A DNA stretch of 64,000 nt from an uncultured Pseudomonadota bacterium (GTDB taxonomy: Bacteria > Pseudomonadota > Alphaproteobacteria > RF32 > CAG-239): the NCBI GenBank assembly GCA_949289935.1, contig CASEQD010000003.1:8816-72815 (forward strand), given 5' to 3'. Each line of letters opens with the position of its first letter. Positions within the stretch are counted from its first letter, which is position 1. Of this stretch, positions 2,883 to 27,694 are shown piece by piece. Below the pieces are notes generated by a model, which saw only the letters and a list, made by a program, of their open reading frames with translations, was not told where the DNA came from and searched no databases. Position numbers and translations under genes: made by a program.

Positions 2883-2960
2883 TTTGAATATTCTGAGGCG
2901 CTGTTGTAATTTATGTTCATAAAAGTTTTATTGATATATTAAGTTTTTCCTCATAAACTC

Positions 2961-4115
2961 ATGTCAGTCCTTTTAAGAATGAGTTTATCAATGAAATTTC
3001 TCAGATATTTGTTTTTACTGTGTTTTTTTTCATTACCTGTTTCTGCCGGAGAAACAAGTTATTCCGTTTCCGGAAGGTCTGATTTGTTGTATGGCTATTC
3101 TGACGTATCATCACGGTATGAAAATTTTGATAAGAATAATAATTATGTCGGCAAATTTCAGCTGAACACAGCGGTTTTACATGAATTTAATGATGATTAC
3201 AGCGGCGGATTATATTTTAACCTGGCGGGAGGCAGCGGCATAGAGATTCAAAACTATACAAACGGCAACTGGGGAAAACAGATTTTCGGCGTTTTAAATA
3301 CACCGTTCGGACAAATTACCGGCGGTGAAACAGTTAATGCTGCCGCTCAACTCCAACAAGGAATTACGGCTCACGGCCCTTTAGGCATAAACAACTCGGG
3401 AATCGTCGATTTTATCAGCAATCCAAACTGGTATCGACGCACCCATAAATACAGCAGTTTTAAAACACTTAATTCGACATCAATGAACACAGACGGGCTG
3501 GCACCGAAAATTTCTTACTATACGCCGCAAATTGCCGGAATCATTGCCGGCTTTTCGTATGTTCCGGATACATACAGCCGTACCGGGCTGGTCAGCAATT
3601 ATGCCGATTATTCCCGTAAAGACGCTTATGTTGCCGCTTTGTATCAAGAAATTGATTTTGGCTTTGCTTCTGCCGCTGCTTCTATGGGATATGGCGTTTA
3701 TCATAAAACCGATAAGGATTTTACGGCCGGACTGACTCTTTACCACGGGAACTGGTCGTTTGGCGCCTCCTATCGAAAAACATATGTTGACGGAAACGAC
3801 AACCGGATTATGTCCGACAGCAAAAATCCCCGTACGCCGGACTGGTTTGACGCTTATCGCGAGGGACAAGCCTGGAGTGCGGGAATCGGTTATGCTTTCG
3901 GCCCGTATAAAGTCAGCCTTTCTTATTTTGAAGCAAAAGCGGATAATCTTCCCAACAAAGATGAAATCTTTTTGCTTTCCAACGATTTTCAAATTAATAA
4001 ACATTTTAATGTTTATGCCATTGCGGCACATACTAATTTCAGAGGAGAGAATCGGGATATCAGAAACAACAACCGCGGATATGCTTTTATTACGGGACTG
4101 GGAATCAATTTTTAG
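2961..4115 (+). CDS. Outer-membrane beta-barrel protein (porin-like); probable start at 2991 (MKFLRYL...)
   Basis: Signal peptide ending VSAGE; alternating aromatic/Gly-rich beta-strand pattern; C-terminal GLGINF with terminal Phe typical of outer-membrane beta-barrels. Confidence 0.55.
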   Translation: MSVLLRMSLSMKFLRYLFLLCFFSLPVSAGETSYSVSGRSDLLYGYSDVSSRYENFDKNNNYVGKFQLNTAVLHEFNDDYSGGLYFNLAGGSGIEIQNYTNGNWGKQIFGVLNTPFGQITGGETVNAAAQLQQGITAHGPLGINNSGIVDFISNPNWYRRTHKYSSFKTLNSTSMNTDGLAPKISYYTPQIAGIIAGFSYVPDTYSRTGLVSNYADYSRKDAYVAALYQEIDFGFASAAASMGYGVYHKTDKDFTAGLTLYHGNWSFGASYRKTYVDGNDNRIMSDSKNPRTPDWFDAYREGQAWSAGIGYAFGPYKVSLSYFEAKADNLPNKDEIFLLSNDFQINKHFNVYAIAAHTNFRGENRDIRNNNRGYAFITGLGINF

Positions 4116-16055: not shown

Positions 16056-16087
16056 AAAGCCTGCCCTGAAAAGCAGGCTTTTAATTT
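16056..16087. terminator. Bidirectional terminator hairpin between dnaJ and the convergent gene
   Basis: AAAGCCTGC-CCTGAAAA-GCAGGCTTT followed by T-rich sequence. Confidence 0.55.
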
Positions 16088-16103: not shown

Positions 16104-16886
16104 TTAAAATTCGATGACAGGATAAACATAACGGGAAAAATCCGCAGGGTCATTGCTCAACCCTCCTTGAACAGTTCCTCCATCAATTGACATAAAAAAC
16201 CAAACTTCACTGGTACCTTTATAGCCTATCGTTGATGACCAACTGTTAGGACTTTCTGAAAATTTTTTGCTTCCGCCAAGTTTGGATATGGTATTGTCTA
16301 TAACAGCCATATTGGTGTAAACACTGTTCCAAACTCCCGCAGCCGGCAGGCACCATTTACCTTTTGTCTTTGAAGCGGCGGATGGCGAATAGTTTTTTGC
16401 CGCCCAGGCTGCCGGATATTCATATGATGAACCTTCCTGCGTTATTTTTTGGGTGTTTCCGCAGCTGTCATAGTCTTTTATTGCCGATGTATAATTATCA
16501 TATCCCGGTAAATCAACCGAAATATAGCTGTCGTCACTTTTCCATTCATATGAACCTATCGAATTTGCAGTTATTGCCTGGCCGCAGTTGTCAGAACCGA
16601 TATATACCACAACGGCAAGCGGTTTTTTTCCGGAAACGATATCGGCGGAACAGGTTCCGTCTGAATTCAGAATATCTCCGATTTTGCAGTTTTTGGCGTA
16701 ACCGGTGCACTGACCGAGAACGGCGGCTTTCGGTTCTTCGGGCTGGCAGGCACCGTCTTTCCATTCGTATCCGTCTTCACAGTCTTTCGGGCAATAATAA
16801 TATTCTCCGAACGGGCATTTTAATCCCGGCGTTTTGCAGGAAGTTTTATTATAGCCCAAACTCACACAACACATTTCATTCTCCAC
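16104..16886 (-). CDS. Cys-rich protein, paralogue of the secreted protein at 26734-27642; N-terminally truncated (no signal peptide, GTG/ATG start immediately after a stop), possible pseudogene
   Basis: Shares LGY..TSC..G.KCPFG, GYEWKDG.CQ, GYAK.C..G..LNSDGTC, KKP...V.YI, CGQAI, DSCGNTQKI.Q.G, YPAAWAA, KG.WCLPAAGV and the C-terminal IEF with the paralogue. Confidence 0.55.
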   Translation of the reverse strand: MENEMCCVSLGYNKTSCKTPGLKCPFGEYYYCPKDCEDGYEWKDGACQPEEPKAAVLGQCTGYAKNCKIGDILNSDGTCSADIVSGKKPLAVVVYIGSDNCGQAITANSIGSYEWKSDDSYISVDLPGYDNYTSAIKDYDSCGNTQKITQEGSSYEYPAAWAAKNYSPSAASKTKGKWCLPAAGVWNSVYTNMAVIDNTISKLGGSKKFSESPNSWSSTIGYKGTSEVWFFMSIDGGTVQGGLSNDPADFSRYVYPVIEF

Positions 16887-17076
16887 ACTTTATTACTCTG
16901 GTTTTAGTGTAGCATGGATTTTGCTATTGTTCAATTACTAATTTTATGTGGAAGTGAAAAAAATAAAGAAGATTTTTCAGGATGCCGAAATCTATTTCAG
17001 AAAGAGAATTTGAAAAATATCTCTATTTATGGAGAAAAAAGAAATTTATTTGAGAAAAAAACAGGGGAATAACAAA

Positions 17077-22837: not shown

Positions 22838-22932
22838 GATGGAGGGCAGTGGGTTAATTATTCGCCAATCCGGTCAGGTTCGGAAGAAAGCAGCCGTAAC
22901 GAACCAATTAAGGTCAGTGTCCCTCCGCCTTA
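22838..22932 (+). ncRNA. ffs: Signal recognition particle RNA (4.5S, ffs)
   Basis: Conserved domain IV sequence CCGGUCAGGUUCGGAAGAAAGCAGCC, closed by the GGAGGGCAGUG...CAGUGUCCCUCC helix. Sits in the classical position immediately upstream of dnaX. Confidence 0.75.
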
Positions 22933-26403: not shown

Positions 26404-26499
26404 AAATATGGGCGGAATATAAAAATTCCGCTCTTTTTATGTTTCCGATGCGGTTCTATAAAAATATTCTTTATTTTTTAACTTGTTTCCGCTATACTG

Positions 26500-26733
26500 T
26501 TTTTATGCGGTTGAATTGGCCGCTGAGGGCGTGACAACCCTTTATTCACATAGTCGTCGGCATAAACGACTTAAAATAAGAGTATGCTGATATCTGCTAT
26601 TTATGGGCGGATGTCAGCGTTATAAGGCTTTGCACGAAGACGCTGAGCCATTTATGTGAATATGGTTGTCAACATCCGTCCTCCTTTCCGGGAGGATTTT
26701 TTTGTTTTAACTAAAAAACAAGGATGTTGTAAC
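26500..26733 (+). promoter_or_regulatory. Structured 5' leader with intrinsic terminator and alternative antiterminator pairing (riboswitch/attenuator-like)
   Basis: Long-range helix TTATTCACATA (26538-26548) with TATGTGAATA (26655-26664). Internal hairpins GTCGT...ACGAC and GCTGATATC...GGATGTCAGC. Terminator UCCUCC-UUUCCG-GGAGGA plus U7 at about 26679-26705. The GGUUGUCAACAUCC strand can alternatively pair with GGAUGUUGUAAC overlapping the start codon region. Confidence 0.45.
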
Positions 26734-27642
26734 ATGAATACGAATTTCAAATTTTTATTTTCAGGGGCGGGATTGTTTTTAATTCCGCTGGCGGCTTCTG
26801 CACAATGCATAGCAACAACTGATTGTGCCACGTTAGGTTATACTGAAACATCTTGCCCAAACGGCAAAGGTATTAAATGTCCCTTTGGCGATACTTGGGC
26901 TTGTCCGACAACAGAAACAGAATTTTGCGAAAAATATGGTTTCAAATATGACTGTTCCGGTTCCGGATATAAAGGCGGCGGGGAGAGCTCCTGTAATGGG
27001 AAATATGCTTTTTGCAACTGCCAGAACGGATATGAATGGAAAGATGGAAAATGCCAGAGAAAAAGCATGATAGAAACTTCTTTGGGATATTGTTCCGGTT
27101 ATGCCAAGTTTTGCCGACTAGGTCAGTTGTTGAACAGCGACGGAACATGTACAGATAAAGAAGAACCCAATAAAAAACCAATCGGAACCGTAGCTTATAT
27201 TAGTGTTGAAGGCTGCGGACAAGCCATTGCTCCCGTAACATCAGCAGCATGGTCGACCGTAGATAACGAAACGGGCGCTTTTTCAACTATTTCTGCCGAA
27301 GAGGCCTGGAATGATTTTGACAGTTGCGGCAATACACAAAAAATTATTCAAAATGGAGATAAAAGTAAATATCCGGCGGCTTGGGCTGCTGTTGACTATG
27401 CTCCGGAAAATGCTCCGGAAACAAAAGGATTATGGTGTCTTCCCGCTGCCGGAGTATTTCATCATATGTATGAAAACAGAAATGTTTTTACAGATGACTG
27501 GTATTCCCGATGGTCGTCAACAGAATCTTCAGCATGGAATGCCTGGGAACTGGAATTTGATGATAAATACGGAACAGGAGGGATTGTCAGCTCTCGAAAA
27601 GATAATGGCAACCGTGAGGTTTGGGCCGTTATTGAATTTTAA
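26734..27642 (+). CDS. Secreted Cys-rich protein (the ORF track starts at 26656; real start MNTNFKF with AAGGA RBS)
   Basis: Signal peptide LFLIPLAASA; more than 25 Cys; repeated GYEWKDGKCQ-type modules; C-terminal VIEF. Paralogue of 16104-16886. Confidence 0.6.
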   Translation: MNTNFKFLFSGAGLFLIPLAASAQCIATTDCATLGYTETSCPNGKGIKCPFGDTWACPTTETEFCEKYGFKYDCSGSGYKGGGESSCNGKYAFCNCQNGYEWKDGKCQRKSMIETSLGYCSGYAKFCRLGQLLNSDGTCTDKEEPNKKPIGTVAYISVEGCGQAIAPVTSAAWSTVDNETGAFSTISAEEAWNDFDSCGNTQKIIQNGDKSKYPAAWAAVDYAPENAPETKGLWCLPAAGVFHHMYENRNVFTDDWYSRWSSTESSAWNAWELEFDDKYGTGGIVSSRKDNGNREVWAVIEF

Positions 27643-27694
27643 CTTTAATGATTTTAAGGCAGGTTTTACAACCTGCCTTGTTTTTTCTTTTGCC

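Follow-up and report, generated by a model that had tools for sequence, protein, structure and literature searches.

What are two related, cysteine-rich proteins of an uncultured alphaproteobacterium, and how would their genes be controlled? The question is raised by a 64,000-nucleotide (nt) stretch of contig CASEQD010000003.1 (hereafter “the window”), which carries gene A (26734..27642, plus strand, stop codon included), for an exported protein of 302 amino acids (aa), and gene B (16104..16874, minus strand), for a 256-aa relative without signal peptide. We propose that both belong to a family of Sec-exported, lectin-like proteins, that A is governed by an attenuator-type leader RNA, and that B is a disabled copy; the probability of this reading as a whole is put at roughly 0.7. 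Uncultured Alphaproteobacteria of this kind are common in the human gut, and their interactions with the host, mucus, diet and phages are scarcely known.

The two proteins are 37% identical across the whole of B (BLASTP, E=3e-52), and tblastn with both detects no other copy in the window. The initial annotation had already taken the two open reading frames (ORFs) for paralogues, and correctly so: both lie where it placed them, and the motifs it listed as shared (CPFG, GYEWKDGxCQ, GYAKxC..LNSDGTC, KKPxxxVxYI, CGQAI, DSCGNTQKI, YPAAWAA, KGxWCLPAAGV and IEF) are all found in the A-B alignment. The ORF of gene A is nested in a longer GTG-started ORF, and the mechanical ORF of gene B is 16104-16886 (minus strand). 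A typical Sec signal can be read in A and none in B, and alignments confirm an extra Cys-rich segment in A relative to B, both as first described. The cysteines had been overcounted: A contains 17, not more than 25, and B contains 13. A protein identical to A (P0001) is present in other assemblies, and the public annotation of B is the 256-aa form (P0121).

The family had been thought to have two members; it is in fact very large. Among 5.8 billion protein clusters searched, relatives of A (E≤1e-3) make up 691 clusters at 90% identity and relatives of B (E≤1e-20) 586, nearly all of them unnamed metagenome proteins or “hypothetical proteins” of Pseudomonadota metagenome-assembled genomes (MAGs). 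With a 105-member profile, 5,307, 1,548 and 334 representatives of 50%-identity clusters are retrieved at E≤1e-3, 1e-10 and 1e-30, respectively, including giants with up to 11 domain repeats. A scan of one genome per species confirms 145 loci. Of the best 79 of these 145, “uncultured Azospirillum sp. UMGS63,” a MAG from the human gut, contributes at least 29, and another MAG, “Pseudomonadota bacterium S36M_St_32,” at least 41; other uncultured Alphaproteobacteria and Candidatus Scatocola account for the remainder. This is among the largest paralogous families in these genomes. The source of the window is a close relative of the scanned MAGs, its RlmN, DnaJ and RadA proteins being 86-92% identical to theirs. 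Family genes stand singly, dispersed among housekeeping genes: A neighbors a DUF1796 gene and cvpA/radA, B neighbors rlmN and dnaJ, and another member lies between secY and rplO. Literature searches on the family, on DUF1566 together with riboswitches, and on the gut lineage yielded no description of the protein family or of its leader.

Direct scans of A and B against Pfam and NCBIfam bear out the statement that the proteins match no recognizable family; fold searches and transitive profile evidence do not, and lead to Lcl_C/DUF1566. An AlphaFold2 model of A (monomer, built on a 105-sequence alignment) has a mean predicted local distance difference test (pLDDT) score of 88.3. In Foldseek, its best match in the Protein Data Bank (PDB) is the C-terminal domain (CTD) of Legionella Lcl (8q4e_A; E=1.9e-5, probability 1.00, template-modeling score 0.60 on the target), followed by a Bacteroides fimbrial protein and then by C-type lectin-like domains, including those of snake venom and CD23. 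In the predicted structure the domain of A has a C-type-lectin-like alpha/beta fold like that of Lcl-CTD. For profiles, the reference is the gathering score of Pfam Lcl_C/DUF1566 (PF07603), 34.9 bits. Weak Lcl_C matches are seen in 9 of 33 family members (best E=1.3e-4), tandem-domain members reach 28-32 bits (E about 1e-7), below the cut-off, and five of the six multi-repeat relatives fetched by the family profile score 50-114 bits, above it. HMMER alignments display the core motifs shared with Lcl_C (W-x-LP..., WSS..AW and VRxV at the end). Judging from the model and these intermediates, the C-terminal domain belongs to the Lcl_C/DUF1566 superfamily as a remote branch, with a homology that is transitive, not direct, and the protein family appears as a new, divergent, Cys-rich and massively expanded branch of that known superfamily. 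A large set of “hypothetical proteins” would thereby become a divergent Lcl_C/DUF1566 subfamily. The giant relatives P0212 (1843 aa), P0213, P0214 and P0346 (1920 aa), with 5-11 domain copies, pass Pfam Lcl_C, and weak Phage_base_V-like stretches occur in some relatives.

The architecture of A can be followed from end to end. The signal-peptide codons (aa 1-23, MNTNFKFLFSGAGLFLIPLAASA; 26734..26802, plus strand) have the n-, h- and c-region layout with an AxA motif, and cleavage is predicted before QC. Family-wide, P18, A23, Q24 and C25 of this segment are nearly invariant, and in the model of A residues 1-24 have low pLDDT. An N-terminal Cys “head” module follows (aa 24-58, QCxxxxDCxxLGYxxxxCxxxxGxKCPFGxxxxCP; 26803..26907, plus strand), in whose alignment C25, C31, L34, G35, Y36, C49, P50, F51, G52 and C57 are invariant or nearly so. 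Next comes the Cys-rich repeat module (aa 59-110, C..GFKY.C.G.GY..G....C..KY..C.C..GYEWKDGKC; 26908..27063, plus strand), the “extra insert” of the initial annotation, which is modeled as small beta-hairpins. Its copy number varies from 0 to 3 across the family, and B retains only the last hairpin (CEDGYEWKDGAC). The C-terminal Lcl_C/DUF1566-like domain of A occupies aa 117-302 (27082..27639, plus strand) and ends in VWAVIEF; the Pfam matches of relatives end here as well. By homology to A and the family, that of B extends from LGQCTGYAKNC to VYPVIEF (16107..16718, minus strand). The family consensus of this domain is about 185 aa long (LGxCxGYAKNCxIGxILNSDGTC...GKxPIGVVVYI...CGQA...DFDSCGNTxKI...YPAAWAA..Y.P....TKGKWCLPAAG...WSSSE...AW...VRPV[IL]x-F) and includes six conserved cysteines. 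The terminal IEF noted earlier is indeed common to both copies, but family-wide it is one variant of [IL]-x-F (IAF 67, IEF 59 and LAF 46 among 211 members). Some relatives have two C-terminal domains in tandem, and their internal copy also ends in VRPVxEF or VRPVVGF before the protein continues. Because these internal domains end alike, the terminal Phe motif is best taken as the last strand of the domain. A role for it as a sorting signal for the beta-barrel assembly machinery of the outer membrane was considered and rejected, the motif being shared by internal tandem domains and the model being alpha/beta with no barrel. A lipoprotein was rejected too, as Q and not G, A or S precedes the Cys and leaves no lipobox. 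Finally, no GXY collagen-like repeats are found in A, B or the inspected relatives, whose N-terminal part consists of Cys-rich modules.

What such proteins do can be approached through their nearest characterized relative. Lcl-CTD is the trimeric head of an adhesin, lacks disulfides, and binds sulfated glycosaminoglycans via a basic surface (PMC11162425). Lcl is a secreted bacterial protein, as the family members are predicted to be from their signal peptides. The differences are clear, however: the family domain has six conserved cysteines, in contrast to an Lcl-CTD free of disulfides (PMC11162425), the collagen-like repeats and the N-terminal helix give way to a Cys-rich head and repeat modules, and dozens of copies per genome are not a feature of Lcl. 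DUF1566 more generally is a C-type lectin (CLec) fold, a variation-tolerant scaffold that also serves hypervariation by diversity-generating retroelements (DGRs) (PMC11661182). Like the major paralogous domain of Fibrobacter succinogenes, expanded DUF1566-related families and DGR variable proteins, the present family is a large exported paralogue set built on a CLec-like domain (PMC11661182), and the segment that varies most is in the C-terminal part of its domain. Unlike them, it carries a Sec signal peptide and not a lipoprotein signal, and A and B match none of the NCBIfam or Pfam families. That A or B might be a DGR variable protein was examined and rejected: blastn of both against the window gives the A-B cross-match alone, with no template repeat, no search having been aimed at a reverse transcriptase. 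Since the window holds no template repeat, the diversity would come from paralogy and recombination and not from retro-mutagenesis.

The pace of this diversification is visible when the same chromosomal slots are compared. In UMGS63, the rlmN-dnaJ slot is occupied by a 322-aa member that is 43% identical to B (L004 3001-3969), and in S36M_St_32 the DUF1796-cvpA slot holds a member 37% identical to A (L036 3001-3915). Same-slot genes are hence 37-43% identical, vs. 86-92% for the flanking housekeeping genes. Diversifying selection, recombination between paralogues, or both would fit this pattern, one that an interaction surface would be expected to show, and paralogue expansion together with fast turnover would diversify the binding loops. 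The family proteins would be extracellular or surface proteins that bind ligands, probably glycans, in an adhesin-like way. This agrees with the earlier view of a lineage-restricted, surface or secreted adhesin, which fits both the Lcl_C-like lectin fold and the fast divergence relative to flanking genes. Predicted to be exported, bearing a lectin-like adhesin fold and diverging far faster than its neighbors, the family is an obvious candidate for a place at the host/gut interface. Secreted toxins, bacteriocin-like effectors or phage-receptor decoys could look similar, with Cys modules and a variable C-terminal domain that recognize targets: the family is predicted to be secreted, is disulfide-rich, hypervariable and multi-copy, and its structural neighbors after Lcl include snake-venom C-type lectin-like proteins. 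We consider this rather unlikely: Pfam and NCBIfam scans of A and B turn up no domain of toxin, enzymatic or immunity type; in the inspected loci each gene stands alone among housekeeping genes, without an immunity or secretion partner next to it; and the closest characterized relative is an adhesin head (PMC11162425).

How would an adhesin-like gene such as A be controlled? The spacer upstream of A is 330 nt long, and about 240 nt of it are 70-82% identical to the upstream regions of ~40 paralogues in other genomes (blastn), which makes this region more conserved than the coding sequence itself. The conserved part contains a structured leader RNA of about 200 nt, which we call type I (26504..26705, plus strand, from the approximate transcription start to the U-run of a terminator), with a mean column identity of 77-84%. 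A family promoter consensus (TTGCTA-17-TACCCT) stands directly 5′ of the conserved RNA, and conservation runs on to the ATG. In the window, the putative −10 hexamer is TATACT (26492..26497, plus strand), placed by its position in the family consensus; the −35 element is poor, and the consensus scan made no call for the leader promoter of A.

The association of this leader with the family is exclusive. When public metagenomes are scanned for an exact pattern of three invariant blocks, 72 stretches emerge, and all those with a readable source label are from human-gut assemblies. Across all loci the pattern has 113 matches, 98 of which are followed in fixed orientation by an ORF recognized by the family hidden Markov model, 94-109 nt from pattern to ATG. 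The other matches are at contig ends, at family genes with 5′ deletions, or in leaders split by a miniature inverted-repeat transposable element (MITE). Where a downstream ORF can be called it is a family member in 98 of 99 cases, the exception being a 5′-deleted family gene. A covariance model finds a single copy in the window (cmsearch, 26504-26679, 172.7 bits), and in family loci without a BLAST match to the leader it finds remnants only; in the sample of family genes, about one in two has the leader. At gathering thresholds, Rfam (15) recognizes two tRNAs and the signal recognition particle (SRP) RNA in the window and no leader family, and permissive scans of the A leader and of L024 bring no family near its threshold. 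The leader is thus an uncatalogued RNA, exclusive to this protein family.

MITEs deserve a separate mention. The element is ~270 bp long, has no ORF and ~30-bp terminal inverted repeats, and is inserted in type-I leaders in both orientations; none is present in the window. Copies are seen at L005 2601-2870, L065 2600-2869, L108 1937-2206, L118 6898-7167 and, in the other orientation, L103 7217-7484, with partial copies at L012, L067 and L072. The insertion site is always right after GAGCCGUUUU, the 3′ strand of helix H3 described below.

The leader folds into a conserved structure, S1 (26531..26673, plus strand). Helices H2 (26531-26539 with 26664-26673) and H3 (26544-26551 with 26654-26661) close a junction that contains the hairpins H4 (26552-26571), H5 (26586-26618) and H6 (26626-26649), and hairpin H1 (26507-26523) lies upstream of H2. 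Two alignments were used: A4, a MAFFT alignment of 33 leaders with a structure from RNAalifold, and A6, 72 metagenome leaders in an alignment fitted to the model. In A4, 96.2% of the cells pair, vs. 33-47% with the partners slid, and 18 pairs show compensatory changes. There are 143 compensatory cells vs. 45.6±4.9 in shuffles (0/500), a comparison whose significance is overstated by the relatedness of the paralogues, and the covariation score is 0.300, vs. 0.133 in shuffles and 0.03-0.07 with slid partners. The independent set A6 gives 98.5% pairing, 274 compensatory cells vs. 75.7±11.5, and a score of 0.309. The sequence of H3 is hypervariable, with compensatory changes at all of its pairs and standard pairs in 84% (A4) and 96.5% (A6) of the cells. 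Single-sequence folds agree with S1 (z=−6.9 for the window copy, and −6.7), and invariant U-G pairs (A4 115:146 and 119:142) establish that the transcribed strand is the gene strand. It might be argued that the upstream conservation merely reflects whole cassettes that were recently duplicated or gene-converted, with no function at the RNA level: the paralogues clearly arise by duplication, and the leader is more conserved than the coding region. This is almost certainly wrong and is already contradicted by the covariation, since 18 base pairs have compensatory changes, the hypervariable H3 keeps its pairing, and the slid-partner controls fall to 33-47% paired; furthermore, a sequence-divergent leader (type II, below) keeps the same architecture.

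At its 3′ end the leader has the parts of an attenuator. An intrinsic terminator picked up by a terminator scan (GUCCUCCU-UUCC-GGGAGGAU and a U-run; 26678..26703, plus strand) ends 30 nt before the start codon, and in the family it is conserved as two classes, UCCUCC/GGAGGA and CCCGCC/GGCGGG, each followed by a U-run. The Shine-Dalgarno (SD) region AAGGAUGU (26720..26727, plus strand) is complementary to an anti-SD, ACAUCC (26672-26677), situated just 5′ of the terminator; in type I, RNAalifold pairs this anti-SD with GGAUGU of the SD region. The SD region also resembles a GGA-motif site of the CsrA type.

A second fold, S2 (26605..26681, plus strand), was traced via a sub-threshold alignment to the Rfam family sRNA-Xcc1. 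It comprises X1 (26605-26613, GGGCGGAUG, with 26673-26681, CAUCCGUCC; GCGGAUG pairs with CAUCCGC), X2 (26616-26644) and X3 (26646-26667). Covariation is seen here too: pair 183:199 of A4 is GC in 21 leaders and AU in 12 with no exception, and in A6 pair 169:185 is GC 33/AU 20, 135:163 is AU 29/GC 13/GU 13, and 137:161 is CG 42/UA 7/UG 5. S2 is incompatible with H2, H3, H5 and H6, and part of it falls on the 5′ arm of the terminator. The two folds cannot coexist, because the X3 loop holds the 3′ strand of H3, and X1 uses the 3′ strand of H5 and the 5′ arm of the terminator. X3 was also considered as a tertiary pseudoknot within S1 and was rejected on steric grounds, with only ~1 nt between the 3′ strand of H3 and that of X3.

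A terminator between the promoter and the ribosome-binding site (RBS), and exclusive pairings that touch the terminator and the anti-SD, are the structural hallmarks of an attenuator, and a model can be proposed. Gene A would be monocistronic, with the leader transcribed ahead of it and ending at the terminator. In S1, the stable fold, the terminator would form and the anti-SD would be free to pair with the RBS, giving an OFF default. In S2, the internal GGAUGU-containing strand would pair with two elements, the anti-SD and the terminator's 5′ arm, leading to antitermination and a freed SD. An effector (ligand, protein or RNA) is proposed to shift the leader from S1 to S2, which would turn A ON. 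We thus infer a default-OFF attenuator of transcription and probably of translation, in which both the direction of the switch and the effector are our proposal. Standing ahead of about half of the sampled family genes, such a leader would gate dozens of paralogues together.

The trace through sRNA-Xcc1 raises another possibility, namely that the upstream element is a free-standing small RNA (sRNA), distantly sRNA-Xcc1-like, which travels with the family genes, the protein gene being expressed by read-through or from another promoter. The leader RNA does end in a strong intrinsic terminator, and S1 plus terminator is the thermodynamic ground state. When the 3′ half of the leader is folded as S2, its alignment covers all 87 positions of the model, with a GC-rich outer stem, two hairpins inside it and a tail rich in C and U, and it matches the full model in 8 of the 11 leaders tested (25.8-35 bits). 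Moreover, in integron cassettes sRNA-Xcc1 too is found immediately upstream of a gene, namely symE (bioRxiv 10.1101/2025.06.18.660453). All these matches are nevertheless far below the gathering score of sRNA-Xcc1 (RF02221; 53 bits), which none of the 11 leaders reaches, and the window copy has no match at E≤5. The leader is more than twice as long, its 5′ domain has no counterpart, and the host lineage and the downstream gene differ. The orientation of the leader is constant and its distance to the family gene fixed (94-109 nt, pattern to ATG), no other conserved promoter is found between terminator and ATG, and the anti-SD pairs and co-varies with the downstream SD between leader types, which makes sense only in cis. 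A free-standing sRNA is for these reasons quite unlikely, and the cis-acting attenuator remains our preferred reading.

That covariation between types comes from a sibling leader. A type II leader is present upstream of other family members (L007 2805-3009, L011 2793-2997, L021, L033, L034, L046, L049, L080 and L113 4051-4255), the L033 one being from a more distant MAG. Its sequence is divergent and its layout is that of type I: a 5′ hairpin, a hypervariable long-range helix, an internal hairpin, the anti-SD, the terminator and the SD. The long-range helix is complementary in all nine copies. In type II, RNAalifold pairs the anti-SD and SD as AGCUCC/GGAGCU, with two compensated differences from the ACAUCC/GGAUGU of type I. 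An internal GAGUGGAG can pair with CUCCACUC, which spans the anti-SD and the terminator arm; in L033, the most distant copy, this second helix has one compensated position (A-U to C-G) and one G-U wobble (GCGUGGAG/CUCCGCGC).

Together, the type-I leader and its type-II sibling might be an undescribed riboswitch-like class of sensor for a small molecule or cellular factor, co-switching dozens of hypervariable lectin-like surface-protein genes in this uncultured human-gut lineage, in effect an RNA-gated adhesin repertoire; this suggestion is tentative, and we would sooner doubt it than assert it. As in riboswitches and other leader-RNA attenuators, the 5′ leader is structured and promoter-proximal, with an intrinsic terminator before the RBS and two exclusive, covarying folds; one strand has two possible partners, inside the sensor domain or in the anti-SD and the arm of the terminator. 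As with riboswitches, a single genome carries numerous copies, which precede genes of related function. Unlike riboswitches, no Rfam family reaches its gathering score for the leader, the genes concerned encode predicted secreted lectin-like proteins and not metabolic or transport functions, and one leader helix is hypervariable. With its unusually clear covariation, the leader is a concrete candidate for a new class of cis-regulatory RNA, and its effector would reveal the signal that controls the repertoire.

A third kind of 5′ region consists of a canonical promoter (TTGAYT-17-TATAAT) followed by ACAGGAGAATAAAC-ATG. It is found at L004 (~2900-3000) and also in L005, L013, L016, L020, L047, L058, L065, L067, L068 and L072, in some loci downstream of type-I leader remnants. 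Its presence beside these remnants suggests that the regulation of family genes has been replaced repeatedly.

Gene B differs from A in both its 5′ region and its start. No type-I leader is found at B by cmsearch. Instead, a promoter-like TTGAAC-17-TACACT (16906..16934, minus strand), a match too weak for the consensus scan, is followed by a short unstructured 5′ untranslated region (UTR). B belongs to a subfamily other than that of A, with a plain promoter and a short UTR. It was first said to begin at a GTG directly after a stop codon; GTG 16886 is only the boundary of the mechanical ORF, and the true start is the ATG at 16874-16872 (MCCVSLGY...), which follows GGAG (16884-16881) and is aligned with the start of full-length relatives. 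The closest relatives of B begin MRV..SAGKKVYFTLLASSFMFPISAFAQC (also given as MRV..SAGKKVYFTLLASSFMFPISAFAQCVDNEDCVSLGY). In a DNA alignment with the locus of one of them, P0122 (L003), the promoter-like region, the RBS (GGAG) and the ATG are all kept, with 85% identity over 103 nt; after the ATG of B there is a gap of ~98 nt, and the alignment resumes at ..CVSLGY. Relative to in-frame relatives, the gap is a 33-codon in-frame deletion that removes the signal peptide and the first Cys. The “VENE” upstream of the B Met looked like a possible remnant of the “VDNED” of relatives and was rejected, the DNA alignment showing a translated RBS region only. No remnant of a signal peptide exists upstream of B in any frame, so the outcome that the initial annotation had named as refuting it, an intact upstream exon or signal peptide, did not appear.

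Outside the deletion, B deviates from only 1 of 56 conserved columns (R→Y in VRPV). The few other changes imply that the lesion is recent. B is also a mosaic, with residues 1-85 being 82-89% identical to P0122-P0128 and the rest 38-44%. The idea of a decaying duplicate of A does not hold, given the different subfamily and the single deviating column; B is most likely a recently disabled copy, whose product would stay in the reducing cytoplasm. Lesions of the 5′ end occur at other loci as well. At L003 (3940-4110; the P0122 locus, from the same metagenome sample as the window), the family gene lies on the opposite strand between secY and rplO, and an A-run (GGCAAAAGG) is a base short of the length it has in in-frame relatives, putting the ATG and signal peptide out of frame; the annotated start is internal (MFPISAFAQC). 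L088 and L145 are family copies in which small deletions have taken away either the RBS with the start codon or the first few codons; as in B, the lesion is at the 5′ end.

B might still not be dead: the deletion could be a mis-assembly, or B could be a functional signal-less variant that works in the cytoplasm, leaves the cell by some other route, or serves as a silent cassette donating sequence to expressed paralogues by gene conversion. Its frame is intact, with a native RBS, ATG and promoter-like region, one conserved column alone is changed, the deletion allele comes from a single assembly, and the family is mosaic. Against this, all seven closest relatives listed have a signal peptide, of which the frameshifted P0122 keeps the C-terminal part; a protein with 13 cysteines and exported homologues is unlikely to fold in the cytoplasm; the independent 5′ lesions in L088 and L145 and the frameshift in L003 fit sporadic inactivation; and the paralogues are mostly full-length, not silent cassettes. 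A living B is unlikely, though by no means far-fetched, and recent disablement remains our preferred explanation.

Several points weigh against the reading as a whole. For the proteins, A and B have no Pfam or NCBIfam match even at E≤10 and so fall outside PF07603 membership; searched against PDB sequences, the family profile reaches 8q4e at E=3.1 and the tandem-member profile gives no match. The Lcl_C link is thus one of predicted structure and transitive matches. A itself deviates from 5 of 56 conserved columns, including VRPV→VWAV, and misses ~20 residues common to most members; given both, its own functionality is not assured. The deletion in B is documented in one assembly only. For the RNA, the relatedness of the paralogues affects the shuffle controls, the slid-partner controls being fairer and also far lower (0.03-0.07 vs. 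0.30). In the window copy, S1 is favored over forced S2 by about 20 kcal/mol, and the outer helix X1 of S2, being invariant, shows no covariation; instead of the ON state, S2 could represent an intermediate of folding or the shape of a processed product.

The window has some further features. A terminator scan detects a terminator-like hairpin with a T-run 3′ of gene A (27655..27690, plus strand), and another 3′ of gene B with a weak T-tail (16056..16081, minus strand). A bidirectional terminator-like hairpin (26410-26433), directly 3′ of the DUF1796 gene, parts that gene from the leader promoter. The RNAs found by Rfam are a bacterial small SRP RNA (22838-22932, 60.7 bits) and the tRNA genes at 192-264 and 2766-2839.

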